Shown: in pieces, positions 5,362 to 44,120 of the stretch
How positions within the stretch are numbered: position 1 is the first letter of the stretch
How the letters are laid out: each line of letters opens with the position of its first letter
Source of the DNA: a virus
Taxonomy: Duplodnaviria; Heunggongvirae; Uroviricota; Caudoviricetes
DNA: 64,000 nucleotides
Reading direction: 5' to 3' (one strand)
IMG/VR virus record: IMGVR_UViG_3300045988_009865
Coordinates: 1-64,000 of that record
Notes under the pieces: generated by a model
What the model was told of the DNA's origin: nothing
Seen by the model: the letters and a program-made list of their open reading frames with translations, nothing else
Database searches by the model: none
Translations under genes and position numbers: made by a program

Positions 5362-5362
5362 A

Positions 5363-5438: not shown

Positions 5439-5453
5439 ATTTCAATAAAGTTG

Positions 5454-5482
5454 TTGACATTGAGATGCGACTACTTTATAGT
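5454..5482 (+). promoter_or_regulatory. sigma70-like promoter (TTGACA, 17-nt spacer, TATAGT)
   Basis: -35 5454..5459, -10 5477..5482; directly downstream of tRNA-Ile; drives region holding the tag-like mini-ORF and tRNA-like element. Confidence 0.55.
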
Positions 5483-5531
5483 AACCTTAGTTTTCGTTGC
5501 GTAGCGTCTATTTTGCAAATTTAAAATAAAT

Positions 5532-5567
5532 GCAAACGACAATGTTTTTCTGGCAGTAGCTTGATAG
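5532..5567 (+). other. tmRNA-tag-like mini reading frame GCA AAC GAC AAT GTT TTT CTG GCA GTA GCT TGA TAG (ANDNVFLAVA, double stop)
   Basis: starts with GCA and encodes an AND-initial, Ala-rich decapeptide with tandem stops, resembling tmRNA resume/tag frames; no ATG or RBS in frame. Confidence 0.3.
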
Positions 5568-5715
5568 GCTAAACACCAGTGAGGTCTTCCAATCCCTCAT
5601 CAAAGAATTTGGCGTACTAGCCCACGGTATGATTAATAAGGTGGGCAACATTCTAAAGGGTATCCCTTATGGGGCTTGGCTTAAATGCAATGAGTACCCT
5701 TTAAAATGTTAATTA

Positions 5716-5797
5716 CGGGGCGTATCTCAGCGGTCTTCTAAACCGCCGTTAACCGAGTAAGTGGAGTATGCGGGTTCGAGTCCTGCCGCCTCGACCA
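5716..5797 (+). ncRNA. aberrant tRNA-like structure: Ala-type acceptor (G3.U70, A73, CCA), Arg-type loop (CTTCTAA), no canonical D-arm, 23-nt extra segment
   Basis: acceptor CGGGGCG/CGCCTCG 7/7 with G3.U70; perfect hairpin GCGGT-CTTCTAA-ACCGC; T-arm GCGGG-TTCGAGT-CCTGC; only 7 nt between acceptor and anticodon-like stem. Confidence 0.5.
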
Positions 5798-5813
5798 ATT
5801 TTGGATGAAATCA

Positions 5814-6160
5814 TGAAAACTTGTATTAGGTGCAAACTTAGCAAGGATGAAAGTGATTTCTACATGAAAGATGGTAGGAGAACTCATTCATACTGTAAAA
5901 AGTGTGTTAATGAGCAAACCATAGAAAGACAAAGAGCACTTAAACTTTCAGCTATTGAGTACAAAGGTGGGATTTGTCATGATTGTGGTAAAAGGTATCA
6001 TCCAGCAGTGTATGACTTCCATCATTTGAATCCTTCAGAGAAAGATTTTAACATTGGTCATAGAAAAAGTCTTAAGTTCTCTCAGGAGCTAAAAGATGAA
6101 CTTGACAAATGTGTTTTGCTATGTTCAAATTGCCATAGGGTAAGACATGCAAAGTATTAG
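5814..6160 (+). CDS. HNH homing endonuclease
   Basis: CxxC...CxxC zinc motifs and YDFHHLNPSEKDFNIG...LLCSNCHR HNH core; ATG at 5814 preferred over track start 5768, which lies inside the tRNA-like element. Confidence 0.7.
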
Positions 6161-6297
6161 TTAGCAGATTGCTTAGACGACCTTATCGGGTCTCCGTGTA
6201 AGGAGGTGGTCTGTATCTCATGTTTTCCAGAACATGTAAATAATCTGAGAAGGGGCTTTACAGTGTTGCGAAAATACGGTAAGCTTCGAATTATAGT

Positions 6298-6380
6298 GTG
6301 GGACGATGTTAAGACTCTAAGGCATGAGCAACGGCCTCCAAAACCGTTTCAAAGGGGTTCAACTCCTCCGTCCCATGCCA
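6298..6380 (+). tRNA. tRNA-Trp (anticodon CCA)-like with about 7 extra nt in the D region
   Basis: acceptor GTGGGAC/GTCCCAT (G1.U72), loop CTCCAAA, T-arm AGGGGTTCAACTCCTCC, CCA; D region 26 nt rather than about 19. Confidence 0.45.
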
Positions 6381-6393
6381 AAGTCTTATTAGG

Positions 6394-6481
6394 GGTAGGT
6401 AGCGGCTAATGGCAGCCAAACAGTCTTGAAAACTGTTGCCACTGTAGAGATACGGTGAGGGTTCGACTCCTTTACTTACCG
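6394..6481 (+). tRNA. tRNA-Ser (anticodon TGA), long variable arm
   Basis: acceptor GGTAGGT/ACTTACC, anticodon arm ACAGT-CTTGAAA-ACTGT, about 20-nt variable arm, T-loop TTCGACT. Confidence 0.65.
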
Positions 6482-6637
6482 CCTAATAAGATTTAAAGCC
6501 AAGCTTCATTCGGATGTTGCTTTGGTATCCCTCGTGTATTGTCGTACACGCACAGTAAAGCACCTAGTAGGTGTCACGGAGAAGAGATAATATCAAGCTC
6601 TCCAAAGGTTCTAGTCACCGGATTAAACAAGACTATG

Positions 6638-6662
6638 CAAAGACCAATTTAGGTCTTTTTAG
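6638..6662 (+). terminator. hairpin AAAGACCAATTTAGGTCTTTTT (minimal AGACCAA/GGTCT unit plus T-run)
   Basis: stem AGACC/GGTCT followed by TTTTT; same AGACCAA word as stem elements 1 and 3. Confidence 0.4.
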
Positions 6663-6739
6663 AGGGCTTCTAAGGTTATTACAGCTTGTTGTGGAACCTT
6701 GTTGCTTAGGTTCTTAGAAGTTCTCTAAAAAGATTTAAT

Positions 6740-6817
6740 GGGAGATTGACGGTAATTGGTAAACCTACCATCCTTAGAAGTTGGTGTTTGAGGGTTCGAA
6801 TCCCTTGTCTCCTACCA
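6740..6817 (+). tRNA. tRNA with anticodon TAG (Leu-type anticodon) but short variable arm
   Basis: acceptor GGGAGAT/GTCTCCT, loop CTTAGAA, T-arm GAGGGTTCGAATCCCTT, A73, CCA. Confidence 0.5.
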
Positions 6818-6824
6818 AATTAAT

Positions 6825-6900
6825 GCAGGTGTAGCAAAATGGTTATGCGGCTGACTCTTAATCAGTAAGACGATGGGTTCAATTCCCTCCACCTGTACCA
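6825..6900 (+). tRNA. tRNA-Lys (anticodon CTT)
   Basis: acceptor GCAGGTG/CACCTGT, anticodon arm GCTGA-CTCTTAA-TCAGT, T-loop TTCAATT, CCA; body resembles the Lys(TTT) gene. Confidence 0.65.
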
Positions 6901-6906
6901 AACATT

Positions 6907-6982
6907 GGGGATGTAGTTTACATGGTTAAAACATAAGTTTTGCAAACTTAAGTACAGGGTTCAATTCCCTGCTTCTCCACCA
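6907..6982 (+). tRNA. tRNA-Ala (anticodon TGC)
   Basis: acceptor GGGGATG with G3.U70, anticodon arm TAAGT-TTTGCAA-ACTTA, T-arm CAGGGTTCAATTCCCTG, A73, CCA. Confidence 0.75.
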
Positions 6983-6988
6983 ATTAGT

Positions 6989-7063
6989 GCATCCATAGTT
7001 TAAACGGGAAAATTACAGTCTTCCAAACTGAGGTTGAGGGTTCGATTCCCTCTGGATGCTCCA
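6989..7063 (+). tRNA. tRNA-Gly (anticodon TCC)
   Basis: perfect acceptor GCATCCA/TGGATGC, loop CTTCCAA, T-loop TTCGATT, CCA. Confidence 0.8.
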
Positions 7064-7070
7064 AATTAAT

Positions 7071-7147
7071 GCTGCTTTCGTATAATTGGCTATTACACAT
7101 CCCTTGTAAGGATGGAAATGCAGGTTCGAGTCCTGTGAGCAGCACCA
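7071..7147 (+). tRNA. tRNA-Thr (anticodon TGT)
   Basis: acceptor GCTGCTT/GAGCAGC, anticodon arm CATCC-CTTGTAA-GGATG, T-loop TTCGAGT, CCA. Confidence 0.8.
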
Positions 7148-7242
7148 ATTCAGAGGTCAAGTGAAAGACCGCTGGTGTCAACTGAAGACCGTAACAAATT
7201 CCACGGAGTTGAGTTAGCGGCACAACTTCAGACCTCTTTCAT

Positions 7243-7317
7243 ACTCGCTTAGTTTATATGGTAAAACACCACCCTTACAAGATGAAGAAAAAGGTTCAAG
7301 TCCTTTAGTGAGTACCA
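7243..7317 (+). tRNA. tRNA, probably Val (anticodon TAC); anticodon stem weak
   Basis: acceptor ACTCGCT/AGTGAGT, D-stem GTTT/AAAC, loop CTTACAA, T-arm AAAGGTTCAAGTCCTTT, CCA. Confidence 0.5.
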
Positions 7318-7318
7318 T

Positions 7319-7396
7319 GTTCCAGTATCCCAATTGGCAGAGGATGCAAGCTCAAACCTTGTATTAGTGACGGTTCGAATCCGTCTTGGAACACCA
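7319..7396 (+). tRNA. tRNA with anticodon CAA (Leu-type anticodon) but short variable arm
   Basis: acceptor GTTCCAG/TTGGAAC, D-loop CAATTGGCAGA, anticodon arm GCAAG-CTCAAAC-CTTGT, T-arm GACGGTTCGAATCCGTC, A73, CCA. Confidence 0.55.
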
Positions 7397-7412
7397 ATTT
7401 TAGGAGAACACT

Positions 7413-7520
7413 ATGAGTGATAAGTCAATTGCAAAAAAGTTTATAGCGTCATTCAAAAATAGGCGTAAAAACAAAGATTGTGAAAAACTGTATGGTGTTC
7501 TTGTAGGTAAGCAGGATTAG
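7413..7520 (+). CDS. small hypothetical protein (35 aa) inside the tRNA cluster
   Basis: AGGAG RBS 7 nt upstream of ATG 7413; MSDKSIAKKFIASFKNRRKNKDCEKLYGVLVGKQD; stop overlaps 5' end of tRNA-Arg. Confidence 0.25.
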   Translation: MSDKSIAKKFIASFKNRRKNKDCEKLYGVLVGKQD

Positions 7521-7586
7521 TTCAAATGGATAGAGCAACAGTCTACGAAGCTGTTAATAGGGGTTCGAATCCCTTATCCTGCGCCA
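7511..7586 (+). tRNA. tRNA-Arg (anticodon ACG)
   Basis: perfect acceptor GCAGGAT/ATCCTGC, D-arm GTTCAAATGGATAGAGC, loop CTACGAA, T-loop TTCGAAT, CCA. Confidence 0.8.
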
Positions 7587-7605
7587 ATTTAAAGAGGCTA
7601 TTTAG

Positions 7606-8163
7606 ATGAGATATTTGAAGTATGCTTCATGGATTTTCTTAGCTTTGTTAGAGCCATTTGCAGCAATCTTAGCAGTTATCTTAGCACCTTTCGTAGTTCC
7701 ATTTTACAGTGAGAAGAAAGGACACTTACCTTTTGGATTCAGATGGATGGAGACATATGATAACCCAATTGATGGTGATAAAGGTCATGTCGAACGATGG
7801 GCTAAGATTAGAAAGGTTGGTAAGCTTGGTGTCTATTTGCAGAGAGTTGGATGGCTCTGGAGAAACAAAGCTTATAACTTCTCTTACCATGTGTTAGGAA
7901 GAGATGTAAAAGATGTTACTAAGTGGAAAGGTAATATCAACGTAAGTTCTGACCCTGAAGATAATCAGACAGGTTATCTCCTGATGTGGAACAGTAACGC
8001 TTGGGGATTATTCGCCTTTATCCCATCAATTAAAATCTTCGGTAAACAATTCTACTGGAGAATTTATGTTGGATGGAAACTTAAAAGTGTTGTCCCAGAA
8101 GAAAGAGCATTCTCAAGGGAAAGAGTTATGTTGGCATTCTTTATTCATCCACTAAGAAAGTAA
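7606..8163 (+). CDS. hypothetical membrane protein embedded in the tRNA cluster
   Basis: 185 aa; hydrophobic N-terminus; AAAGAGG RBS. Confidence 0.55.
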   Translation: MRYLKYASWIFLALLEPFAAILAVILAPFVVPFYSEKKGHLPFGFRWMETYDNPIDGDKGHVERWAKIRKVGKLGVYLQRVGWLWRNKAYNFSYHVLGRDVKDVTKWKGNINVSSDPEDNQTGYLLMWNSNAWGLFAFIPSIKIFGKQFYWRIYVGWKLKSVVPEERAFSRERVMLAFFIHPLRK

Positions 8164-8171
8164 AGATTTAA

Positions 8172-8247
8172 AGGGGATTAGTTTACAAGGTTAAAACCTC
8201 GGTCTTTGAAATCGAAGAAGTTGGTTCAATTCCAACATCCCCCGCCA
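8172..8247 (+). tRNA. tRNA-Gln (anticodon TTG)
   Basis: acceptor AGGGGAT/ATCCCCC (weak 1-72 pair), anticodon arm TCGGT-CTTTGAA-ATCGA, T-arm GTTGGTTCAATTCCAAC, CCA. Confidence 0.7.
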
Positions 8248-8249
8248 AT

Positions 8250-8328
8250 GCTCCATTACTCCAATTGGCAGAGAGGCCAGACTTAAAATCTGTGTTATGT
8301 ATCGGTTCGAATCCGATATGGAGTACCA
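8250..8328 (+). tRNA. tRNA with anticodon TAA (Leu-type anticodon) but short variable arm
   Basis: acceptor GCTCCAT/ATGGAGT, D-loop CAATTGGCAGA, anticodon arm CCAGA-CTTAAAA-TCTGT, T-arm ATCGGTTCGAATCCGAT, A73, CCA. Confidence 0.55.
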
Positions 8329-8333
8329 AATTT

Positions 8334-8409
8334 AGCGGTATAGCATAACTGGCAATGCAGCAGTCTCTGAAGCTGTCTTATTAAGGTTCAAATCCTTATG
8401 CCGCTGCCA
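8334..8409 (+). tRNA. tRNA-Gln (anticodon CTG)
   Basis: acceptor AGCGGTA/TGCCGCT, D-stem GCAT/ATGC, loop CTCTGAA, T-arm TAAGGTTCAAATCCTTA, CCA. Confidence 0.65.
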
Positions 8410-8440
8410 CTTCTAAGGGTTCTTACGAGAGTCCTTAAAT

Positions 8441-8516
8441 GTGGCCTTATCATAAAAGGTAATGACCCATGCTGTGAACATGGTCTATACGGGTTCAAAT
8501 CCCGTAGGTCACCCCA
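8441..8516 (+). tRNA. tRNA-His (anticodon GTG)
   Basis: acceptor GTGGCCT/AGGTCAC, perfect anticodon arm CCATG-CTGTGAA-CATGG, T-arm ACGGGTTCAAATCCCGT, CCA. Confidence 0.8.
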
Positions 8517-8521
8517 ATTTA

Positions 8522-8598
8522 TAGTCCAAGTAGCTTATATGGTTAAAGCGCGTGTCTGAAAAACATGAGAAGAGGGTTCAAATCCCACTGGACTACCA
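8522..8598 (+). tRNA. tRNA-Phe (anticodon GAA)
   Basis: acceptor TAGTCCA/TGGACTA 7/7, anticodon arm CGTGT-CTGAAAA-ACATG, T-loop TTCAAAT. Confidence 0.7.
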
Positions 8599-8614
8599 AT
8601 TTCAAAGGTGCTTA

Positions 8615-9349
8615 ATGAAAGAGATGACAGAACAAGGTAAGGAGATTTTTAATCTCTTAAAAACCGGTAGAGGGTTTTCTAATCCCCTTATTACTGGTGC
8701 AGCAGTTCTCGGTGGAACCGTAGCTGCCTCTACATCACTTGTAAGCTCTATTAGCTCTGTAACAGACCCTACAATGAAGGATAAGCTCATTGCTGCTGGA
8801 CTTACAACAGTTCTGCTTAGCAGCTTTACAACGAGTCTGACAAGCACTACATCAACCACTAAAACACTGACAGATTACGGTCAAAAGTCTATTGATGAGT
8901 TTTCATCACGTATGCAGGTAGCAAAAGGCTACTCCAATGTTATGGGTGCAGCAGGAGAGCAAGTTGGTTGTACACCATTTAGTGGTATTATGGGTGTTGC
9001 TACAGAGTATGGTCAAAAAGCTATTGACACAATTAACAGTGCACTAGACGGTGTTAATGATGTATTAAGTGACTTACAAGATGCTATTGATAAAGGTCTT
9101 GATACTGTTTCTGATTTAGCTAACCAAGCTGTTAGTAAGATTAATGAAGGTATCTCGAAGATTACAGCTTATGCAGATGAAGTTGTGCAGATGATTGAAG
9201 AAGAAGCTGCCCTTATTGCAGAGTACCTTAAAACGAATATCAATGGGTTCTTAGCAGGTATCTTACCAGACTGGTTTGATGATGCTTGTAAAACTGGTGT
9301 GATTGACACTATTGCAACACCAGAAATGAAGAACGCATTACAGAAATAA
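8615..9349 (+). CDS. hypothetical protein (Ser/Thr-rich N-terminal half)
   Basis: ATG at 8615 preferred over track GTG start 8552, which overlaps tRNA-Phe; AAAGGTG RBS. Confidence 0.5.
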   Translation: MKEMTEQGKEIFNLLKTGRGFSNPLITGAAVLGGTVAASTSLVSSISSVTDPTMKDKLIAAGLTTVLLSSFTTSLTSTTSTTKTLTDYGQKSIDEFSSRMQVAKGYSNVMGAAGEQVGCTPFSGIMGVATEYGQKAIDTINSALDGVNDVLSDLQDAIDKGLDTVSDLANQAVSKINEGISKITAYADEVVQMIEEEAALIAEYLKTNINGFLAGILPDWFDDACKTGVIDTIATPEMKNALQK

Positions 9350-9350
9350 T

Positions 9351-9443
9351 GGAAGATTAACCCTAAAAGGTAAGGGAGCAGTTTGCTAAACTGCCAGTAG
9401 CTGAGAAATCGGTGTACCAGTTCAAGTCTGGTATCTTCCTCCA
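9351..9443 (+). tRNA. tRNA-Ser (anticodon GCT), long variable arm
   Basis: perfect acceptor GGAAGAT/ATCTTCC, anticodon arm GCAGT-TTGCTAA-ACTGC, long variable arm, T-arm ACCAGTTCAAGTCTGGT, CCA. Confidence 0.75.
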
Positions 9444-9447
9444 ATTT

Positions 9448-9523
9448 GAATCCGTGACAGAAATGGCTATGTGCCTGTCTGCAAAACAGGTTTATAAGGG
9501 TTCGAGTCCCTTCGGATTCTCCA
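9448..9523 (+). tRNA. tRNA-Cys (anticodon GCA)
   Basis: perfect acceptor GAATCCG/CGGATTC, anticodon arm CCTGT-CTGCAAA-ACAGG, T-arm AAGGGTTCGAGTCCCTT, CCA. Confidence 0.8.
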
Positions 9524-9560
9524 AGTTATTTTACTCTCTCTCAATTAAAATAATAATAAT

Positions 9561-13894: not shown

Positions 13895-15241
13895 ATGAGT
13901 TCGAATATCTTCAGACTTGCTGATAGATTATTCAACCAACCTTTACTAGCCACTGAATCATTAGCTCACTCAGCAGCAACTTATGTGAATAACAGATTGC
14001 TGGGTGATGTCCAAGCAGCAGTAAACTTTGATAAACCCAAAGGTGAAGCAAGAAGTCTTTTAAAAGTAAAAGATGACATTGCTATTATCCCTATTATGGG
14101 TGGTTTAACTCATCGTATGACATTCATTGATGCAATGTGTACAGGTGGTCTAAGCTCTTATGAAGGTTTACGTAGAGGCTTTGACGAAGCTTTAGCAGAT
14201 GAGTCAATTAAGACTATTGTTCTGCATATTGATTCTGGTGGTGGTGAAGCTTCAGGTTGCTTTGAATTAGCACGTCACATCATGGCTTCAAGAGGCCAAA
14301 AGAAAATTATTGCTTATGTAGATGAGTTCGCTTGTTCCGCTGCATATGCTCTTGCATCTTCTGCTGAAGAAATTATTGCATCACCAGATGCAGATGTTGG
14401 TTCTATTGGTGTAATCATGGTTCATCAGGAATTAACTAAGGCATTTGAAAAGAATGGCGTAACAATTAACGTCATCAAAGCTGGTGAGTTTAAAGGTATG
14501 GGTTCACCATTCCAAGCACTTTCAGAAGAAAGCAAAGAAAGACTTCAAAAGAGAATTAATGATACCTACGCAACCTTTACAGGTTTTGTAGCCGAATCTC
14601 GTAATCTCTCTGAAGAAGCTGTAAAGAATACTGAGGCGAATGTTTATTCTGCTCAGGAAGCTCTTGAACTTGGTTTAATTAACTCAATCATGTCTCAAGA
14701 TGATTTCTTAAATTACTTACAAGGTTCTGAAGAGGCTCCTGTAAGTTTAAACGTTAACAATTCAGGTGAAGAAATGACTGAACAAGAAAAGCAAGAACTA
14801 GAAGCTTTGCGTCTTCAGGTTGCTCAAATGAAAGCTAAAGAACAGGAAGCTGCTTTGTCAGATTTGACTAATAAGATTTCTGCTTCTGCTGAAGCTTTTG
14901 GATTTGATGCAAAAGAAGCTGCAACGACTATTTTAGGTGCTGGTCTTGATAACCCTCTGAGTGTTCTGTTTATGAATGCTATGGAAGGTGCTAACCAGAA
15001 ACTTAATGAAACTATCGCATCCCATGCTTCTGCAATGGAAGAAAAAGAATCAGAAATTACCAAGCTGAAAGAAACTGCTGGTGCTGTTCTTGAACATTCC
15101 AACGCTATGGAAGAAATGGGTAATGACGGCGAAGCTGATTTGGTTGAAGAAGAAAAAGAACCAGCTAAGAATGCTTCCGAAGACACCGCTGAACAACGCA
15201 AACTGGCTCTCCAGAATGCTCTAAAATCTCTTATCAAATAA
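13895..15241 (+). CDS. prohead protease (S49/ClpP-like) fused to coiled-coil scaffold-like C-terminal domain
   Basis: N-terminal IDSGGGEASG...SIGV motifs typical of S49 head-maturation proteases; C-terminal Glu/Lys/Ala-rich heptad region; position between portal and capsid. Confidence 0.65.
   Translation: MSSNIFRLADRLFNQPLLATESLAHSAATYVNNRLLGDVQAAVNFDKPKGEARSLLKVKDDIAIIPIMGGLTHRMTFIDAMCTGGLSSYEGLRRGFDEALADESIKTIVLHIDSGGGEASGCFELARHIMASRGQKKIIAYVDEFACSAAYALASSAEEIIASPDADVGSIGVIMVHQELTKAFEKNGVTINVIKAGEFKGMGSPFQALSEESKERLQKRINDTYATFTGFVAESRNLSEEAVKNTEANVYSAQEALELGLINSIMSQDDFLNYLQGSEEAPVSLNVNNSGEEMTEQEKQELEALRLQVAQMKAKEQEAALSDLTNKISASAEAFGFDAKEAATTILGAGLDNPLSVLFMNAMEGANQKLNETIASHASAMEEKESEITKLKETAGAVLEHSNAMEEMGNDGEADLVEEEKEPAKNASEDTAEQRKLALQNALKSLIK

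Positions 15242-21222: not shown

Positions 21223-21223
<1 letters not shown>
20984..21223 (+). CDS. tail assembly chaperone C-terminal extension (gpGT-like), probably made by -1 frameshift from 20583..20981
   Basis: 79-aa ORF in -1 frame relative to upstream chaperone, ends where tape measure starts. Confidence 0.5.
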
Positions 21224-29239
<8,016 letters not shown>

Positions 29240-35767: not shown

Positions 35768-36127
35768 TTATGGGAACAAGCACTTAATGTCATCGTTTTT
35801 GAAAACAAAACTTGTGTAGTTGTGACCGTCAACATCCAGCCAAACAGCCTGAACATCCACACCATCAAGATTGTGGTAAAGTTCTTTGATGAAGTGGTCT
35901 TTCACAATCTGGCTGCTAGTTGTTTCCAGCTTAATGTTCGAGATTGCTGAACCTACAGCCATATAGCCCATGACCCGTTTCTTCTCAGTATGCTTAATCT
36001 TACCATCTTTGTAAGCCATAATGAGATTGGAAAGAATTTTTACACCATAATACTTTTCAAGGTGAGTAGGTACACCATAAAAGCCTAATGCGAAGTTTTC
36101 AGAGTGGATAATGTTTTCACGTTTCAT
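35768..36127 (-). CDS. hypothetical protein
   Basis: 119-aa ORF. Confidence 0.5.
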   Translation of the reverse strand: MKRENIIHSENFALGFYGVPTHLEKYYGVKILSNLIMAYKDGKIKHTEKKRVMGYMAVGSAISNIKLETTSSQIVKDHFIKELYHNLDGVDVQAVWLDVDGHNYTSFVFKNDDIKCLFP

Positions 36128-36128
36128 A

Positions 36129-36458
36129 TTAATCTGCCAACCTTAAATTGAAATTAACACCAAATTTTTCGCATACTTCCAACATAAACTCAAGAGAGAC
36201 ATTACCAGTGAGATTAATTATGTTGGATACACGAGCCTGAGAGATACCACAAATTTTAGCAACTTGCTCTTGAGAAAGACCTCTGGATTTAATCTCTCTC
36301 TTAAAACGATGTGCAACGAAGTCTCTCATTTCGTCTACATCCATTGGACAAACATAACTCTCCATTTCAGCCTCTCTGTCAGCCTCCCAATCATCTTGTG
36401 GAGCATAAGGGTCAAAAACCTCATTCATCTTTCTTCTTCCGTTTACGTGAAGTGTCAA
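36129..36458 (-). CDS. HTH (XRE-like) transcriptional regulator
   Basis: C-terminal helix-turn-helix LSQEQVAKICGISQARVSNI. Confidence 0.6.
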   Translation of the reverse strand: MTLHVNGRRKMNEVFDPYAPQDDWEADREAEMESYVCPMDVDEMRDFVAHRFKREIKSRGLSQEQVAKICGISQARVSNIINLTGNVSLEFMLEVCEKFGVNFNLRLAD

Positions 36459-36633
36459 TCAATGAATCTATGTTTGTAGCCCTAACCTTTTCACGTTCAT
36501 CGTTGAGATAATCGTCAAGAGCCTTCTCAATCTGTGAATCATCTTGACAGATAACTGTAAAGACTGTAAAGCCGTCTGTATCGTCAATTATCTTACCATA
36601 ACCGCTTCTGGGATGTAACTTTTTAAGAGCCAT
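36421..36633 (-). CDS. hypothetical protein
   Basis: 70-aa ORF; overlaps downstream gene by 38 nt so start uncertain. Confidence 0.4.
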   Translation of the reverse strand: MALKKLHPRSGYGKIIDDTDGFTVFTVICQDDSQIEKALDDYLNDEREKVRATNIDSLIDTSRKRKKKDE

Positions 36634-36634
36634 A

Positions 36635-37018
36635 TCAAATACCTGTGCAGCTTCTGTTTTCTAAGAAATACTCAACACCATACATAGCTTTTTGCATCAA
36701 ATCTTCTTTAAACTGGATACGATGGTTGAGCATAGCCTGTACATCAATATCATCACGGTGTTTCTCTTTAATGTTTGCAGATTGAAGGAAATACTCTGCA
36801 AGAACACGATACTGATAGTCAGTTACCTTATCCGTCATCTCTGTCAAAGACTCTTCAGAGATTGGTTTAAGCAACTCACCATTAGATAGAGCAACACCTT
36901 TAACAATCTGACAAGTGTCTTCTGGAACACCTGATAAGTCCACATTTGGAAGTTCTGTTGCATTGACTGGTAAATTTATTGCCATAACCATTGCAGCAGC
37001 TAATAAAATCTTTTTCAT
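36635..37018 (-). CDS. secreted protein (N-terminal signal peptide)
   Basis: MKKILLAAAMVMAINLPVNA signal-like N-terminus; GAGGT RBS. Confidence 0.55.
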   Translation of the reverse strand: MKKILLAAAMVMAINLPVNATELPNVDLSGVPEDTCQIVKGVALSNGELLKPISEESLTEMTDKVTDYQYRVLAEYFLQSANIKEKHRDDIDVQAMLNHRIQFKEDLMQKAMYGVEYFLENRSCTGI

Positions 37019-37062
37019 AATGACCTCAAAGTTATATTAAATTTTGTATTACGTTGAGTATA

Positions 37063-37091
37063 AAAATAAGCTATAACACCTGACTTGTCAA
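37063..37091 (-). promoter_or_regulatory. candidate minus-strand promoter (TTGACA, 17-nt spacer, TATTTT) inside 8-bp palindrome
   Basis: plus-strand TGTCAA 37086..37091 and AAAATA 37063..37068; inverted repeat AAGCTATA/TATAGCTT (37070..37077 / 37100..37107). Confidence 0.4.
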
Positions 37092-37126
37092 CAGATTTTA
37101 TAGCTTATTTGGCAGATTTTTTATAA

Positions 37127-37213
37127 GGCTACTGCCATCCTTCCATACATTACCTTACCTTACCTCACCTGACCTGACCTGACCCTACCTAACATTACCG
37201 TGCCACACCTCAC
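37127..37213. repeat. pentanucleotide tandem-repeat block A1 (ACC every 5 nt on plus strand)
   Basis: TTACC TTACC TTACC TCACC TGACC TGACC TGACC CTACC TAACA TTACC GTGCC ACACC; plus strand nearly G-free. Confidence 0.8.
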
Positions 37214-37243
37214 TTAAGAACCCTCTTAAAAGACTCTTAAGTG
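37207..37243. repeat. conserved hairpin CACTTAAG-AACCCTCTTAAAAGACT-CTTAAGTG
   Basis: 8-bp inverted repeat; near-identical copy at 38749..38787. Confidence 0.6.
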
Positions 37244-37270
37244 ATGTAATCGAATTTTTATGTAGCTCCG

Positions 37271-37336
37271 ATTAACTACCCATACCTCACCTCATCCAAC
37301 CATACCATGCCTTACCAGACCGCACCTTACCTTACT
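37271..37336. repeat. pentanucleotide tandem-repeat block A2
   Basis: period-5 CNNAC pentamers (CATAC CTCAC ... CTTAC CTTAC) preceded by ATGTAGCTCCGATTAACTACCCATACC, which has a counterpart before block B2. Confidence 0.75.
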
Positions 37337-37354
37337 AAAAGACCCTGTTTAAAG

Positions 37355-37386
37355 ACCTTTTAAAAAGGAGCCTCCGAAGAGGCTAC
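37355..37386 (-). terminator. rho-independent terminator for minus gene 37396..37836
   Basis: AGCCTC-CGAA-GAGGCT followed on minus strand by CTTTTT; preceded by 31-nt conserved AAAAGACCCTGTTTAAAGACCTTTTAAAAAGG. Confidence 0.5.
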
Positions 37387-37395
37387 CTAGTCAAC

Positions 37396-37836
37396 TTAGA
37401 AAGGTTTTCTACGTTGCTTGTTAATGTTAGCTTTCATAGCAGCTAAATGGTTTTGCTGTTCAATCAGTCGTGAACGTTCTTGATGACTAAGTGCCATAGT
37501 GTTCACATTCTCAATCGCTTGAGTGGCTTGCTTTAAAGCTCGACCAATCTTGCCAGACATTTTACGTTTTGCAATAGTTGCTTGATGCTTAGGTTCAACC
37601 ACACGATAACCAACACCCATTGAAGCAACCAGATAAATCTTCTCTTCTTTAAGAAGCTTCTCAATAAACTTCTCAAGTCGGTTTAGACGTGTAAGCGCAT
37701 AAGCCTTCATTTCATCTTCGTACTTAACAATGTCACCTTGATAAGTTGGCTTCACAATACCTAAGAAGGTATCCATCTCAGAATGTGATACAGTGTCACC
37801 GTAACTAAACTTTGCTGCTAATGCTTTTGTATTCAT
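37396..37836 (-). CDS. hypothetical protein
   Basis: 146-aa ORF. Confidence 0.5.
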   Translation of the reverse strand: MNTKALAAKFSYGDTVSHSEMDTFLGIVKPTYQGDIVKYEDEMKAYALTRLNRLEKFIEKLLKEEKIYLVASMGVGYRVVEPKHQATIAKRKMSGKIGRALKQATQAIENVNTMALSHQERSRLIEQQNHLAAMKANINKQRRKPF

Positions 37837-37838
37837 AA

Positions 37839-38444
<606 letters not shown>

Positions 38445-38517
38445 TTAGTTTATTGTTAAGTTGTTTGTAAAGAACCCTCAACAGAAGACTCTTTAGAAAC
38501 TTGGTAGATTTTTAATG

Positions 38518-38600
38518 TGGCTACTACCATCCACCCATACCTCACAACACCATGCCATACCCGACCGGACAAGACCAGACCCTACCGCGCCAGACCTCAT
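38518..38600. repeat. pentanucleotide tandem-repeat block B1
   Basis: ACCNN pentamers (ACCTC ACAAC ACCAT ... ACCAG ACCCT ACCGC); preceded by GGCTACTACCATCC (A1 has GGCTACTGCCATCC). Confidence 0.75.
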
Positions 38601-38620
38601 TAAAAGACCCTATTTAAAGA

Positions 38621-38662
38621 CCTTTTAAAAAGGTAAGTCTCATTTTAATGTAGCTGAGACTA
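38621..38662 (-). terminator. hairpin AGTCTCA...TGAGACT with T-run on minus strand, between blocks B2 and B1
   Basis: 7-bp stem 38636..38642 / 38655..38661, then TACCTTTTT on minus strand; adjacent 31-nt conserved sequence shared with region A. Confidence 0.45.
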
Positions 38663-38752
38663 ACTACCCATACCCTACTTTACCTTACCGTACCGTACTT
38701 TACCCGACCGTACCGGACAATACTTAACCCTACCTCACCCGACCGGACATCA
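38657..38752. repeat. pentanucleotide tandem-repeat block B2
   Basis: about 19 tandem NNACC/NNGAC pentamers (TTTAC CTTAC CGTAC CGTAC TTTAC CCGAC CGTAC CGGAC ...). Confidence 0.8.
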
Positions 38753-38787
38753 CTTAAAAACCCTCTTAAAAGACTCTTAAGTGATGC
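38749..38787. repeat. conserved hairpin ATCACTTAA-AAACCCTCTTAAAAGACTC-TTAAGTGAT
   Basis: 9-bp inverted repeat; copy of 37207..37243. Confidence 0.6.
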
Positions 38788-38816
38788 TGGTGAGTACCCG
38801 TTGGTTTATGCTGCTC

Positions 38817-38844
38817 AGTATACTCACCAAATTTTCTATGTCAA
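38817..38844 (-). promoter_or_regulatory. minus-strand sigma70-like promoter (TTGACA, 16-nt spacer, TATACT) pointing into block B2
   Basis: plus-strand TGTCAA 38839..38844 and AGTATA 38817..38822; 8-bp inverted repeat GGTGAGTA/TACTCACC overlaps -10; immediately after ligase stop. Confidence 0.5.
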
Positions 38845-38850
38845 CAACTT

Positions 38851-39987
38851 TTATTCATAATCTCGTATAACCAGCCCAACAGGGAACTGTAAAGACCCCT
38901 TACGAGTCATCTTCTGGAACTGAACCGTTAAAGGCTTCCCGATAAACTCTTCAGGATGCTCAGCAAGATACTGTTTCTTCTCATGAGTAGTCTTCCATGA
39001 GACATCTACAAAGACATTAGGAAGAGTCTCTACAACGAACTTGCCATGACCACGTTTATCTGTCTTTACACCAGTCACTTTAAACTCTTCAGTGTGCATC
39101 TTCTTGTGCTTAATCAAGAAGTATGAACGGTGACAACACTCATAGAAGGAGTCTTCAGAGATTGAACGGTACATTGCACCTTCAAACTTAGCTTCAACCC
39201 ACTTATCATGAGCTTCATCAAACTCTTCCCAAGAATTTACACGACGAGACTTAACAGGAACAACTTTACAGCCGTCTCTGAAGTCATTCAATGGTGAAGT
39301 CTCAATAATATCTCTACGCTCAGGCCACGTCATAGTACTGTCACAGATATCGTACCAGTAGAACTGGAGTAGATGTCGGTCTGGATTGTCAGCATTCTTA
39401 ATCATAGACACAATATCTTCTAAGTCCCAACCATGAGCATAAATCTCACCATCAAAGTCTTCGACTTGTGGATGCAATTTAAGCAACAAAAGCAAATCTG
39501 GGGTTAGTTCTTCTGGGACGTTGTAAATAGTATTCTCACGAGAATAAGCCGTGAAGTTAACTAAATCAGCATCTCTTGAAATCCTACAACGGACACCATC
39601 AAGTTTCGGTTGAGCATCAGCAGGGAACTTCAGATACTTTGCGTGACTAACCTTTGCAGCATCATGAGCAAGCTGTACACCTACCTTTTCAGTATTCTGT
39701 GCAGACTCTTTTGTGTAAGCATAACCTTTACGGTCAACTTGCTTTTTATACTTAGCAGCAACTTCAAAGAGAGCTTGCTGTTCAGCGTTACGCTCATTCT
39801 TTTTACCGATGTTTTTAGGTTCTGCTGTATACTCTTCAAACATCATCTTGCCATTTTCTTTGCCATACGTGGTAACAACTTTGTCACCTACAGCGACACA
39901 TGACCAGACGTTAAAAGAGCCATCTTTATTTTGTTTATACAGTATTGTCATTTTATTCCTCTGAGTGATACCAAGTATTGCAAGCAT
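38851..39987 (-). CDS. ATP-dependent DNA ligase
   Basis: adenylation motif I KLDGVR (PKLDGVRCRI); 378 aa. Confidence 0.7.
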   Translation of the reverse strand: MLAILGITQRNKMTILYKQNKDGSFNVWSCVAVGDKVVTTYGKENGKMMFEEYTAEPKNIGKKNERNAEQQALFEVAAKYKKQVDRKGYAYTKESAQNTEKVGVQLAHDAAKVSHAKYLKFPADAQPKLDGVRCRISRDADLVNFTAYSRENTIYNVPEELTPDLLLLLKLHPQVEDFDGEIYAHGWDLEDIVSMIKNADNPDRHLLQFYWYDICDSTMTWPERRDIIETSPLNDFRDGCKVVPVKSRRVNSWEEFDEAHDKWVEAKFEGAMYRSISEDSFYECCHRSYFLIKHKKMHTEEFKVTGVKTDKRGHGKFVVETLPNVFVDVSWKTTHEKKQYLAEHPEEFIGKPLTVQFQKMTRKGSLQFPVGLVIRDYE

Positions 39988-40144
39988 TACATGCGTAAAG
40001 CTCTAAGTCATTTTTGTCTGGTTTATGAAAACAGTTTGCTCTGCAGTGGCAACGAAACGGCTTTCCACCAACTGTCAGGATGAAGGATTGAACCTTTCCA
40101 TCAGGAGTCCGTACAGCATTTTTATGCTTGTCTTCTTTATTCAT
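39953..40144 (-). CDS. small Cys/His-rich protein
   Basis: 63 aa; CHC...CFH...CNACNTWYH; overlaps ligase start. Confidence 0.4.
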   Translation of the reverse strand: MNKEDKHKNAVRTPDGKVQSFILTVGGKPFRCHCRANCFHKPDKNDLELYACNACNTWYHSEE

Positions 40145-40300
40145 TTGTGCTATTGCCTTTGTCAGATTTCATATAGGACATGTTACTATGCCTTTTAATA
40201 AAATGTACAACGCATTTTGGTGTATCTTTTGGGTCTTTGATGTGCAATCTATCGAAACTGTGTACTGTGAAGGTTGCATCTGTCATTGTCTGCTTAGGTT

Positions 40301-40507
40301 TCATTTTCTCTTACCACCAATCTCTACGTCAATGACTTGAACATCACCAGCAACATCAAACTTATGAATGATGCTTTCCACAGTGTAAGTCCAACCCTCG
40401 ATTCGAACCAACTCACCTTCTCGTGGGACGATTGGGTTACGTTGAGCTACGGTTGTAGTGGAGTGCACAACATCATAACAGTAGATATAGTTTACTAGGA
40501 CTTCCAT
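40301..40507 (-). CDS. hypothetical protein
   Basis: track ORF 40301..40606 overlaps neighbour; internal ATG (MEVLVNYIY...) preferred. Confidence 0.35.
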   Translation of the reverse strand: MEVLVNYIYCYDVVHSTTTVAQRNPIVPREGELVRIEGWTYTVESIIHKFDVAGDVQVIDVEIGGKRK

Positions 40508-40517
40508 CTTGAACACC

Positions 40518-40778
40518 TCACTCAATAACAGTAGTGTGTGATTGACCATTTTTACCATAGCTATAAGATGTTGTTGTTTGAGAGTTTGGACATCTGACAA
40601 CAACAATGTCTCTGCTTATGGCATCACCATGTAACTTATAGACTTTGCAATCTTGCATCTCTGGTGGGAAGCTATAAGAAGCGTTTTTGTCCTCGTAAGA
40701 GGGATTACAGCCAGATAGAAAGATAACACTAAGCACAATTACTGCTTTCCACATAATACTTCTCCTATTACTGTTCAC
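40518..40778 (-). CDS. putative lipoprotein
   Basis: signal peptide plus lipobox (VIFLSGC); AGGAGA RBS. Confidence 0.5.
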   Translation of the reverse strand: MNSNRRSIMWKAVIVLSVIFLSGCNPSYEDKNASYSFPPEMQDCKVYKLHGDAISRDIVVVRCPNSQTTTSYSYGKNGQSHTTVIE

Positions 40779-40923
40779 GATGTTCTACTTCTCTGTACGT
40801 TCGTCGATAGTTTATAATAAGCTGTGCTAACTCGTTGCTTTTAACATCTGAACGTAGGAGTTGCCAATCAAAACCTTTACCGACTCTTCCATATAAACTA
40901 AAGAATTTTACTTTGCGTTTCAT
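40768..40923 (-). CDS. small hypothetical protein (50 aa)
   Basis: hand-translated MKRKVKFFSLYGRVGKGFDWQ...; GGAGATA RBS within repeated junction motif. Confidence 0.4.
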   Translation of the reverse strand: MKRKVKFFSLYGRVGKGFDWQLLRSDVKSNELAQLIINYRRTYREVEHREQ

Positions 40924-40930
40924 TTTGGTA

Positions 40931-40953
40931 TCTCCAATACTCAGATGTCAATG
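40931..40953 (-). repeat. repeated gene-junction motif copy 1 (minus-strand ATTGACATCTGAGTATTGGAGATA)
   Basis: near-identical to 41163..41183; spans stop of upstream gene, RBS and start of next gene. Confidence 0.5.
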
Positions 40954-41153
40954 CTAATACGTTCACCCTTAAGGACTCCTGTACGGTCCCTTGCAATCTT
41001 ACCGTCAACAATAAGGATATGTGCAGACCTTAAAGATTCGCCATTAAAAGCTTTTACGAACTTACAAGGCATTACCACAATAGACATCTCCTGAATCAAC
41101 TCTGGAGTATAGCAATTGTCGTGAAGTTGCTGAATAACGTCTGCAAGTGTCAT
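40941..41153 (-). CDS. hypothetical protein
   Basis: track start is TTG at 41168; ATG at 41153 with GGAGA RBS preferred; ATGA overlap with upstream stop. Confidence 0.45.
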   Translation of the reverse strand: MTLADVIQQLHDNCYTPELIQEMSIVVMPCKFVKAFNGESLRSAHILIVDGKIARDRTGVLKGERISIDI

Positions 41154-41359
41154 TTTTGATGTCTCCAATACTCAATGTCAATAAGTTCTTGTGCAATGCT
41201 TTTCAGATTGCCTTTCAAGAAAACCTTCTCAGAACCTGAAAGAGATGAATTGTCAATTAGCCTGTTCATTCTCTCAAACAACTTCTGCTTACGATTCTTG
41301 ATAGTCTCCTTTGAAGCACCTTTCATCATCGCTGCATGGGTTCTTCCACGGTGGCTCAT
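41150..41359 (-). CDS. hypothetical protein
   Basis: 69-aa ORF. Confidence 0.45.
   Translation of the reverse strand: MSHRGRTHAAMMKGASKETIKNRKQKLFERMNRLIDNSSLSGSEKVFLKGNLKSIAQELIDIEYWRHQK
41163..41183 (-). repeat. repeated gene-junction motif copy 2 (minus-strand ATTGACATTGAGTATTGGAGACA)
   Basis: differs from copy 1 by a 1-nt indel that changes where the upstream frame terminates. Confidence 0.5.
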
Positions 41360-41420
41360 AAGCCCTCCTATATAAGATATTGTATAAGGTACTCTTCCAT
41401 GAGCACCTTGTCAATACTAA

Positions 41421-44120
41421 TTAGTGTACTTCAAGCCAGCTTTTACCAACCTTACCAGTACCTGTAACAAGTGTTTCTTTCTTAAGACCTAAGTTTTTAG
41501 AAGCTTGTCCATAATACCAGTCAGTAACTGCTTTCACATCTGCCGTCATACTTTCTGGACATTCCCAACTCGTCTCATCGTGATATGCGCAGAGCAAACG
41601 AGCACCAATAGCTGGTTGACGACCATTCAACTTCATCAAACCTTCGTCAATCATACGACGGCAAGCAAGGTTAATTGCCTCATTCTGAATTTGAGCCTCT
41701 GAACCCATCAAAAGATAGTTCAACAGTTTGTGTGGAGATTTACACCACAACCAAGCTCCAGCAACCTTTACAAAACCCCCTTTAGAGATTGCAGCAGTCT
41801 TACCAAACACCTCTTCAAGTGCTTTTTTAGTTGCTTTGTAGTCAGCTTCCAAGTCATCAAGTAGCTTCTTAATCTTAGGCAAACGAATAAAGTAAGTCTG
41901 TTTAGTTAGTGCACCTTCCTGAGTAGTTGCAGCTTTAATCGTCTTAGCAAACTTCTCATCACCTGCACCGAACAGTAGTGCATAGATACCATTCTTAGCT
42001 TTCTTACGACCCTTGCTAATCTCATGAAGAAGGTTCTCATCCTGAGTAGCTCGACAAGTCAAGATATCCTGCTCATCATTCAAGCTAAAGTAAATACTGT
42101 TCAGTGTGTGTGCATCAGTCCCTGAATAGACAACGTAAAGGTCATTCTCAGAGTCATAGCGTAGGTACTTATCAACCTCTGGATTGAGGTACTCATCAAA
42201 GTGTTTGCAGTAATAGCGTCCATCTTCTTGACGAATAAACTCAATCTCTTCTTTACCTTGCGTTACCGCTTTGGTGAAGTCTTTGTCACCCATAAAGTTA
42301 CAAAGAAGGACTAGCTGGGCTGAGTTCATGTCTACAGAGACAACGTTAGTACCTTCTTCACAAATCCACACTGCCCTCATTGGTTCCCCATAGACAGCAG
42401 CACCAGACGGTACGTTTACAATACCATACTGTGTCATACGTCCAGTTGAAGTACCAAATACCATTGCACCAGCACTAAGGCGACCATCAGGACGAATCTG
42501 GTTCAGCCAACCTTTTTCATCATCCTTTGAGTTCTCAATAGTTCTGCGTCGGTGCATCAAAGTATAGTACTTAGCAATCTTCTGTCCAAGCTCACCTTCA
42601 ATCGTATCATAAGATGATTCAGTAAGTTTTGGTGAAGTACGGATTAAGCAAGGCTCAAGCAAATCTGTGTACTTCTTCACAGACCAGTTATGTTCAATGT
42701 ACTGGACACCTTCATGTTCAACATAACTCAAACCACACCGTTCCACCATCTCATCCCACTTAGGATGTTTTGTAATCATCTTTTTGTTGTCTTTGAAGCG
42801 ACAAACCTTAACAGGACGACCATCAGAGTCTTTCTTATAGTTCCAGTCATCTGGAATCCAACCAACTGATTTCAAGTAGTCTTTAACAACTGCTACCTGA
42901 GTCATACGAGAAACTTCGAACTCAATTGGTGTATATGGTGCATCAATCAAACCTGTGTAGCGACTTGACTCAAGCTCAAAGTGGTTAACAACATGGCTGT
43001 TATAGTACTTCACAGTCTTAACTGTTTTTACTGGCTTCCAGTCTTTGCACTTCTTACCAATCTTTGCATTCAACTCATTGCAAATTGCACGAGCATCCTT
43101 CATTGCTACAAAGCCTTCCTTGTACTCTTCGCCAGTTACAGAGTTGGTTGGTGTATAGCAATTCCGCTTTTCAATGTTAAAAATCTTGGTAGTTGGTTTA
43201 CCAAATGGCTTGATTTCATATGTCTGCATCTCACCGTTACGTACCTGTTGACGATACTTTGTCTTAGGGTACTTGGTAATTCTCTTCAGTCCATCTGCAT
43301 GACCGAATGCTTCAACATACTCATTCCAAGCTTTTGCAAACTCTTCTCCAGTGACTTTACCTTTGGTCTTAATAGTTGGAGGAAGATGTGGTTCAACTTC
43401 TGAAGCAAGCTCATTAGTCAATTTGTCAAGTTCCTTTACATGAAACTCCATAAGCTCTTTATCAGCTTTCCAACCATTGATAGCCTGTTGACTCATCCAG
43501 AAAGATGTTTCTTTAGCTCGCATGTAGGTTTCATAAGTGTCTATGCCACACTTCTTTAGCTTGAGATATTCATTATCCAGTGCACGTTTAGTTTTGGCGT
43601 TAATACGGATGTCTTCTACAACACGAGTGAAGATTTCTGCATTCCACACACCCCAATGTTCAATCTCTGGTTTACGTACACCAACACGAGCACCCCATGC
43701 AGCCAATCCATGAGCACCTTTATAGCCCTTTGGAGTTGGTCTATCCATCCACTGAACACGAGACTGGATAAGAGAATCCTGAAAGAAATTACTCCACGGC
43801 TTACACTTTGGATTATCAAAGTTCCACAAATCAGGTGCAATGTGATTGAAAACCCACCAGTCATACCCTAAACCATTATGGATGCAAAGTCGTTTTGCCT
43901 TTAACGCAAACTCAATACCTTCACGCAAACCACCCTTAATGTACTTGGTATACTTGTGACCGAGGATAGGTTCATCTGTAAAGACCCATACAGGTGGCTC
44001 TTCATCGTCAGATTTATAGTCTGCGAAAGCCATTACGTGCACCTTAGTGAACTCAAGGAGTAAACCATCAGTTTCTGTATCACCAACTAAATGTAAGTTT
44101 TTAAAATCTACGTTTTCCAT
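41421..44120 (-). CDS. DNA polymerase, family A, with 3'-5' exonuclease domain
   Basis: exo motif VGDTETDGL; Pol A motif A-like VVSVDMNSAQL, motif B-like K..GIYALLFGAG, motif C LLCAYHDE; ATG 44120 with AGAGGGAG RBS preferred over 44150. Confidence 0.85.
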   Translation of the reverse strand: MENVDFKNLHLVGDTETDGLLLEFTKVHVMAFADYKSDDEEPPVWVFTDEPILGHKYTKYIKGGLREGIEFALKAKRLCIHNGLGYDWWVFNHIAPDLWNFDNPKCKPWSNFFQDSLIQSRVQWMDRPTPKGYKGAHGLAAWGARVGVRKPEIEHWGVWNAEIFTRVVEDIRINAKTKRALDNEYLKLKKCGIDTYETYMRAKETSFWMSQQAINGWKADKELMEFHVKELDKLTNELASEVEPHLPPTIKTKGKVTGEEFAKAWNEYVEAFGHADGLKRITKYPKTKYRQQVRNGEMQTYEIKPFGKPTTKIFNIEKRNCYTPTNSVTGEEYKEGFVAMKDARAICNELNAKIGKKCKDWKPVKTVKTVKYYNSHVVNHFELESSRYTGLIDAPYTPIEFEVSRMTQVAVVKDYLKSVGWIPDDWNYKKDSDGRPVKVCRFKDNKKMITKHPKWDEMVERCGLSYVEHEGVQYIEHNWSVKKYTDLLEPCLIRTSPKLTESSYDTIEGELGQKIAKYYTLMHRRRTIENSKDDEKGWLNQIRPDGRLSAGAMVFGTSTGRMTQYGIVNVPSGAAVYGEPMRAVWICEEGTNVVSVDMNSAQLVLLCNFMGDKDFTKAVTQGKEEIEFIRQEDGRYYCKHFDEYLNPEVDKYLRYDSENDLYVVYSGTDAHTLNSIYFSLNDEQDILTCRATQDENLLHEISKGRKKAKNGIYALLFGAGDEKFAKTIKAATTQEGALTKQTYFIRLPKIKKLLDDLEADYKATKKALEEVFGKTAAISKGGFVKVAGAWLWCKSPHKLLNYLLMGSEAQIQNEAINLACRRMIDEGLMKLNGRQPAIGARLLCAYHDETSWECPESMTADVKAVTDWYYGQASKNLGLKKETLVTGTGKVGKSWLEVH

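Follow-up and report, generated by a model that had tools for sequence, protein, structure and literature searches.

The locus between the DNA ligase and vipr genes

The 64-kb stretch of viral DNA analyzed here (64,000 nucleotides; in the following, the window) comes from a Felix O1-like myovirus of the genus Felixounavirus. On its minus strand, the gene of an ATP-dependent DNA ligase (39987..38851) is separated by 424 nt from a gene of 195 codons, vipr (37839..38426), which is followed by vap1 (37396..37836, 146 amino acids); a family A DNA polymerase and small ORFs are encoded on the minus strand in the same region. The 424-nt gap contains a GGU-repeat unit. The 500 bases around this unit were 99.6% identical to Escherichia phage vB_EcoM_E9, and 259 phage records matched. 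In public records, Vipr is a 'hypothetical' protein, and 'DR_4' or 'terminator' stands for the RNA. The GenBank record of wV8 carries 'DR_4' at the same places, and a record other than that of wV8 marks both a terminator and a promoter at these places; in phage ASO1B, a terminator is annotated at the place of the T5 run described below. The Felix O1 genome paper leaves the GGY repeats unmentioned, and a literature search for a Felixounavirus transcriptome returned nothing relevant. The repeat search also surfaced conserved T-arm repeats of a big tRNA-like gene cluster on the plus strand (4100–9550); large clusters of this kind are typical for Felix O1-like phages.

Right behind the ligase gene, an earlier note on this DNA had described a near-consensus minus-strand promoter, and we found it as TTGACA-16-TATACT at 38817..38844 (minus strand). 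It matches the sigma-70 consensus at 11 of 12 positions and was the top-scoring sigma-70 site in a scan of 36000–42000; we assign it, as a predicted activity, to the upstream vrRNA/vipr transcription unit. In 18 of 19 related loci, among them that of phage SUSP1, the 28-nt promoter was the same; locus L006 carried it with one spacer-base change and L018 had none. In SUSP1 (locus L016), promoter, leader and head hairpin ahead of the first guide RNA gene, vrRNA1, are identical to those of the window. The distance from the promoter to vipr varies among relatives with the length of the repeat tract and the number of units.

From promoter to T-run, the unit comprises about 184 nt, in agreement with the roughly 180 nt of the earlier note, and within 38630..38780 the minus strand has no ORF of at least 20 amino acids. 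The predicted primary transcript folded better than shuffled sequences (z = −2.7), mostly via its 5′ and 3′ hairpins in the minimum free energy (MFE) fold. A perfect 9-bp inverted repeat, TGGTGAGTA...TACTCACCA (38788..38829, minus strand), takes in the −10 region along with the initial ~20 nt of the predicted transcript, its arms bracketing the −10 hexamer and the predicted start. It may serve as an operator or, in RNA that reads through from the ligase gene, fold into a hairpin. The TGGTGAGTA/TACTCACCA repeat is invariant in all relatives.

Four units of head hairpin, repeat tract and pseudoknot tail

A repeat search retrieved four copies of a 100–150-nt unit, of which one pair lies in the ligase–vipr gap and the other in the gap that follows (37395..37019), i.e., two on either side of vipr-vap1. 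Likewise, at least 8 GGT per 60 nt occurred in only four stretches of the 64 kb, all of them on the minus (coding) strand and in the two intergenic regions flanking vipr (38426..37839) and vap1 (37836..37396). Each unit consists of a 5′ hairpin, 11–17 GGY-NN pentamers and a tail of ~35 nt. We refer to the units as vrRNA-A to vrRNA-D and to their variable parts as guides A to D.

The repeat tract of vrRNA-A (38670..38754, minus strand) holds 17 GGY-NN units in one register, of which 11 are strict GGY and five are degenerate, with AGT or TGT in place of GGY. The first unit (AGT-GA) belongs to the conserved head; the tract counts 16–17 units. The NN code of guide A reads CC CG GA AG TA AT CC AC CG AA AC AC AA AA AG AT. 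The conserved hairpin and pentamer block, called B2 in the earlier note, were thus both present (38786..38748 and 38754..38670, respectively). Block B1 corresponds to vrRNA-B (38503..38628, minus strand), with head H2 at 38628..38599, tract at 38601..38537 and pseudoknot tail at 38536..38503. Beyond vap1, vrRNA-C (37246..37363, minus strand) is composed of head H2 (37363..37334), tract (37336..37282) and tail (37281..37246), and vrRNA-D (37111..37243, minus strand) of head H1 (37243..37211), tract (37214..37145) and tail (37144..37111). The tract of vrRNA-D has an identical copy in phage VpaE1.

Tracts were compared across 20 loci with Vipr proteins of 97–100% identity. In the 57 distinct tracts, the pentamer consensus was G (86%), G (98%), Y (100%), followed by two positions that use all four bases. 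Tracts among relatives have 8–18 units and are hypervariable between phages; their flanks are nearly invariant. None of the 19 other loci in the comparison contained guide A; the closest guide, that of VpaE1, deviates in five NN units. Rfam gave nothing significant for 37500–39500 (best match, DUF2815 RNA, E = 9), nor were there gathering-level matches in SUSP1 or in two distant loci.

The head hairpin H1 of vrRNA-A, CAUCACUUAAG...UUAAGUGAUG (38748..38786, minus strand), was defined by comparison and MFE folding. It has 15 consensus pairs, including four conserved G·U, and with its 3′ arm it extends into the first degenerate units of the tract. One-sided changes keep the pairing, and one closing pair covaries. 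Hairpins precede all four vrRNAs with 12–15 pairs and three or four conserved G·U pairs, and one of the same kind lies before the ribosome-binding site of vipr. The latter, H3, was read from the pairing of the sequence between vrRNA-B and this site (38467..38496, minus strand). The pairing GAGUCUU/GAGGGUU was seen on the minus strand at 38748–38786, 38599–38628, 38467–38496, 37334–37363 and 37211–37243. The few changes in the heads among relatives preserve pairs (GU to GC, UG to UA, CG to UG, and the one covarying closing pair). Since the heads contain G·U pairs, the structure exists only in minus-strand RNA. Two other readings of the head were dropped. As a general phage promoter or regulatory motif, it gave only unrelated partial matches outside the two intergenic regions, and the direct repeat GUCUU...GGGUU, at first taken for a boxA-like antitermination signal, is really the two arms of the G·U hairpin.

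The 3′ tail of vrRNA-A (38632..38669, minus strand) was identified by covariation as an H-type pseudoknot with an A-rich loop 3. Its stem S1 pairs 38667–38664 with 38653–38650 and its stem S2 38661–38655 with 38642–38636. Nineteen distinct tails aligned without gaps, with S1 in columns 3–6 and 17–20 and S2 in columns 9–15 and 28–34. Under this model 94.7% of all cells were paired (S1 100%, S2 91.7%), and in 9 of the 11 pairs both partners had changed in a compensatory manner. The observed values were not reached by any of 500 shuffles, and slid registers were all below 39% paired. G·U pairs in the tail likewise assign its structure to the minus-strand RNA.

The tail is followed by a T5 run (38627..38631, minus strand). 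The earlier note had placed a hairpin (38661..38636) and a T-run here and had read them as the terminator that closes the unit. Hairpin (AGUCUCA/UGAGACU) and T5 run exist, but the hairpin is primarily S2 of the conserved pseudoknot that caps the guide. It had been missed in a simple terminator scan because its loop measures 12 nt. Judged by sequence, the T5 run, S2 and a GGUA/UACC extension together look like an intrinsic terminator with a stem of 7 + 4 bp; the outer stem, however, was 61.8% paired among relatives and did not covary. A T-run is found only after tail type T1a, and the other three of the four tail types have no U-run; after the T-run of T1a, another head or unit always comes next. 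The T-run behind the first guide may terminate or attenuate transcription ahead of vrRNA-B and vipr, and an extra terminator role of S2 is possible, though not general.

Vipr and the assignment to the VIPR systems

The product of vipr is identical in 192 of 195 residues (98.5%) to chain 36pp_D of PDB entry 36pp, 'SUSP1 Vipr protein' (E = 8.5e-129), and was thereby annotated as a RAMP-like guide-binding protein. All residues listed as RNA or DNA contacts, i.e., H17, K33, R39, E71, M72, K82, K88, R138, D177, W178 and R179, are as in SUSP1. Vap1 is identical in 145 of 146 residues (99.3%) to the SUSP1 ORF following vipr; it belongs to phrog_5926, function not known. Pfam assigned no family to either protein, and PHROGs returned families of unknown function only. 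A Vipr gene 100% identical to that of the window occurs in GU169904.1 (Staphylococcus phage SA1), a record that probably is a chimera or includes contaminating sequence of a Felix O1-like phage.

VIPR (Viral Interference Programmable Repeat) was described in two bioRxiv preprints of April–June 2026 (10.64898/2026.04.26.720920, 10.64898/2026.04.26.720927). Its parts are Vipr, a minimal RAMP related to CRISPR Cas5/6/7, the accessory Vap and the vrRNAs, which consist of 9–16 YNNGG repeats and an invariable 3′ tail of ~40 nt that is a pseudoknot in the SUSP1 clade (10.64898/2026.04.26.720920, 10.64898/2026.04.26.720927). SUSP1-infected cells contained four discrete vrRNAs of ~100 nt by sRNA-seq that co-purified with Vipr (10.64898/2026.04.26.720920); in this preprint, such discrete Vipr-bound ~100-nt RNA is demonstrated for SUSP1 and P. 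fulva only. Cryo-EM of the SUSP1 complex resolved one Vipr protomer per repeat and the 3′ pseudoknot (10.64898/2026.04.26.720927). Protein pockets take up the flipped-out GGY, and the NN bases pair with DNA, leaving out every third base of it; the 'R-loop triplex' formed in this way silences transcription (10.64898/2026.04.26.720920, 10.64898/2026.04.26.720927). Binding and silencing of gapped dsDNA targets by the SUSP1 ribonucleoprotein are documented in the preprints by in vitro binding, GFP repression, defence against lambda and cryo-EM. In the reporter assay of the preprint, a GGY to AGY exchange, presumably of every GGY, abolished silencing.

The Vipr of the window exceeds the 90% identity to SUSP1 Vipr by which membership in the SUSP1 clade was defined. 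We conclude, with a probability of about 0.93, that the GGU-repeat unit is a vrRNA gene, i.e., encodes a guide RNA, of a type II VIPR system of the SUSP1 clade in a Felix O1-like phage, and that it works by the mechanism outlined below. Several points count against this reading: the two upstream vrRNAs and the T1a tail of vrRNA-A depart from SUSP1, five units of its tract are degenerate in view of the AGY exchange in the reporter, the best natural match of guide A is 88%, and guides B and D score 77–79% in the eight satellites sampled. The system is already described, and the locus of the window belongs to a characterised clade.

Window and SUSP1 (vrRNA1–4, Vipr and Vap1) share the gene order of vrRNA(s), vipr, vap1 and vrRNA array, the GGY-NN tracts and the same four pseudoknot tail variants. 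Our covariation analysis of the tails is independent of that in the preprint and larger (19 distinct tails versus five). The layout differs, with two vrRNAs upstream and two downstream in the window compared with one and three, respectively, in SUSP1, and in the window an extra unit intervenes between the shared leader and the T2a-tailed unit. Moreover, vrRNA-A combines the upstream promoter and leader with a T1a tail and U-run, whereas SUSP1 uses T1a only downstream. The sequence of guide A differs from the SUSP1 guides and its unit count lies at or slightly over the published range. The two phages also differ in genus, SUSP1 being a Suspvirus.

We propose the following course by analogy with SUSP1, from which transcript ends, processing and repression in the window phage are all extrapolated. 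Host RNA polymerase would start at the sigma-70 promoter and produce a transcript of 5′ hairpin, about 16 GGY-NN pentamers and 3′ pseudoknot, followed by the U-run. Vipr, encoded just downstream, would polymerise on the tract with one protomer per pentamer, burying GGY and exposing NN, as shown for the 98.5% identical SUSP1 protein. The exposed NN would then pair with dsDNA bearing the same dinucleotides with one skipped base between them, and the R-loop triplex, shown for SUSP1, would block transcription. For guide A, the candidate target belongs to an E. coli satellite phage of ~11–15 kb, whose leftward operon it opens as first gene; the match is read from sequence and the repression presumed.

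The earlier note had left the choice between a stand-alone small RNA and a long structured leader. The first fits, as SUSP1, with promoter and leader the same as here, yielded discrete RNAs in sRNA-seq (10.64898/2026.04.26.720920); the second does not hold in its usual sense, the RNA being a trans-acting guide for the protein encoded downstream. The functional RNA is probably repeat tract plus 3′ tail, about 115–125 nt, and not the whole ~184-nt unit; 5′ leader and hairpin lie outside the repeat-plus-tail RNA described in the preprint. A head hairpin sits just 5′ of each guide and mature SUSP1 guides have about the size of tract plus tail, so that the hairpin may, judged by where it lies, mark a boundary or serve in maturation. 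More tentatively, and well short of even odds, H1, H2 and H3 could be a dedicated maturation signal similar to CRISPR repeat hairpins, cut by a host RNase (e.g. RNase III) or a phage factor to free each guide, with pseudoknot and U-run of the first guide doubling as an attenuator that responds to Vipr and thereby links the loading of guides to the expression of vipr. Both ideas are absent from the accessible part of the preprint text, and the supplement, as far as it was available, has no list of the 41 guides and nothing on processing or terminators. Relative to that part of the text, only the 5′ hairpin and the promoter and terminator details go further.

Distant Vipr homologues (37–40% identity, on metagenomic viral contigs) have GGY/GGC pentamer arrays directly beside the gene. 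On one of these contigs (L025, IMG/VR contig 3300020049_003234), GGY arrays at 2856–2974, 3524–3799 and 4225–4343 fill three consecutive intergenic gaps, and the arrays that end a gap run out as GG(T/A)TTTTTAAC right before the next ribosome-binding site. They adjoin portal and head-protease genes, i.e., a head-morphogenesis module. L025 may be a different VIPR type with guides cut from polycistronic mRNA. The arrays beside distant homologues fit the reported diversity of VIPR types and argue against a link to replication genes.

Predicted targets in satellite phages and alternative readings

Natural guides of the SUSP1 clade mostly target an E. coli satellite phage (10.64898/2026.04.26.720920, 10.64898/2026.04.26.720927). 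With the two gaps as BLAST queries, 125 of 5426 complete E. coli genomes showed a 93-bp match to unit B in unannotated chromosomal DNA. The matched element is integrated, measures ~11–15 kb and carries serine recombinases, a tape-measure gene, a baseplate gene and small unknown genes; relatives of its central 3.6 kb, whole or in part, occur in 522 of the 5426 genomes. It is the satellite described in the preprint. Compared with the phage proteins, its baseplate protein is 80% identical (window 23472–24245) and its tape-measure protein 37–43% (21223–22854). One copy, in the chromosome of E. coli 503025 (L026, NZ_CP025892), has a vrRNA of its own at 14995–15093, with 13 repeats and a T2a-type pseudoknot tail; it is to this RNA that the 93-bp match in 125 genomes belongs. 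Homologues of vipr or vap1 were not found in the eight satellite copies examined; a satellite without vipr must borrow the Vipr of its helper phage.

We scanned eight satellites with the four guides of the window under the published 1-nt-skip rule, taking as criterion an NN match of at least 80% and no self-target. Guide A matched 28 of 32 NN bases (88%) in satellites L031–L033; the site in L031 reads CCACGAGACAGATTTATGCCAACCAGAAAGAGCACGAAGAACACTATT. Hosts of the satellite with the 88% match are E. coli YD786 and D10. At the orthologous site, 23–28 of 32 bases matched in all eight satellites examined, and one satellite allele has a perfect run of 10 units (20/20). By comparison, other positions among the 388,000 scanned gave at most 21, skip rules of 0, 2 or 3 at most 21, and 200 shuffles of the unit order at most 23; within the window, no self-match of guide A rose above background (at most 21/34). 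The site lies in the first gene of the satellite's leftward operon with the skipped base at the codon wobble position, and by sequence this gene is the predicted target of guide A, with repression presumed. Its protein has no recognisable family. For SUSP1, too, targets are predicted in E. coli satellite phages of this kind, again with the skipped base at the wobble position. The exact pattern of the first 10 NN units of guide A had no match in IMG/VR or in GTDB representative genomes. The satellites are absent from these collections, and the null result also shows that a 20/20 match does not arise by chance.

The other guides matched less well or less extensively. Guide C reached 18/20 NN bases in an intergenic hairpin of the satellite, guide D 20/26 in another small satellite gene and guide B 19/24 in the baseplate gene (77–79% for the latter two, eight satellites). 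To act at this weak best match, guide B would need to distinguish the baseplate gene of the satellite from that of the phage itself. The homologous first guide of VpaE1 (L015, 2547–2621), set against guide A (38754–38670), matched 29/32 at a different allele of the same satellite site (L029). This suggests that guides and satellite targets diversify together, in what looks like an arms race.

Might the unit instead, or in addition, be a cis-acting leader? Vipr would then bind the tract in its own leader, and pseudoknot and U-run would set read-through into vrRNA-B and vipr, an autoregulation with a parallel in T4 gp32, which acts on its pseudoknot leader. The unit does sit between the only strong promoter and vipr, its T-run occurs only after the T1a tail and always ahead of another head or unit, and others have predicted a terminator at the same place; a weaker promoter-like site lies immediately before vipr. 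Still, we regard a mainly cis-acting role as unlikely, with an outside chance at best. A pure leader gives no reason for the hypervariability of the NN positions or for their match to a satellite gene, which is far above background, and identical units downstream of vap1 cannot lead vipr. Furthermore, the extended terminator stem does not covary and the SUSP1 RNAs are discrete and trans-acting (10.64898/2026.04.26.720920).

That the G-rich pentamers act as DNA, in a replication origin, an R-loop initiation zone, a cluster of primase sites or a recombination hot spot, appears highly improbable. The location in the replication module beside the ligase and polymerase genes would suit such an element, as would a promoter followed by a G-rich non-template strand and the many GGTC/GGGTC strings in the unit, which we take to resemble T7 primase sites. 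However, G·U occurs among the conserved pairs only when they are read on the minus strand, a pseudoknot is the single-strand structure that the compensatory changes outline, and the partner protein is a solved RNA-binding RAMP. The arrays track the vipr homologue, not replication genes, L025 having its arrays in a head-morphogenesis module. With structure in a strand-specific RNA and arrays that follow vipr, T7-type primase clusters or origins, R-loop origins, Chi-like or RecA-preferred GT-rich DNA and an opposite-strand rut site were all dropped. Finally, a decoy RNA with no DNA target of its own, titrating e.g. a competing element's Vipr or a host RNA-binding protein, has next to no probability: its tract is repetitive as in CsrB-type sponge RNAs and satellites with orphan vrRNAs but no vipr evidently share Vipr pools with other elements, yet a 28/32 match at one orthologous site and the tracking of alleles between guide and target would be unexpected, and variable positions would need no maintenance.

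A TRAP-like or CsrA-like protein-binding leader or sponge had been an early idea and was kept only among these low-probability alternatives. The (G/U)AG repeats of the Bacillus trp leader bound by TRAP have short conserved triplets with two or three variable bases between them and bind one subunit per repeat. Their spacers, however, carry no information and the leader acts in cis, whereas in vrRNA the spacers are the information and act in trans on DNA; the early lead of a TRAP-type repeat was hence given up, and vrRNA is not a member of that kind.

Read as a VIPR guide, the unit invites comparison with Class 1 CRISPR systems, i.e., crRNA and Cas7. According to the preprints, in both a RAMP polymerises along the guide with a thumb domain that flips out bases periodically, a conserved structured handle caps a variable guide, and the system is used against mobile elements. 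Unlike Class 1 CRISPR, VIPR lacks a CRISPR repeat-spacer array, the acquisition genes cas1/cas2 and a PAM. Its guide is non-contiguous, with two bases read per five in RNA and per three in DNA, and it is encoded by a lytic phage and silences its target without cutting.

To the principle of VIPR the locus of the window adds nothing new. It is a natural, so far unannotated instance of the system in a common Felix O1-like coliphage, for which we provide the exact coordinates of four guides and their control elements, together with a predicted target in satellites related to an element present in 522 of 5426 E. coli genomes. VIPR itself is a newly described form of RNA-based DNA recognition that operates with a non-contiguous guide and a single protein of ~20 kDa and requires no PAM, and it has been put forward as an ancestor of the CRISPR RAMPs.
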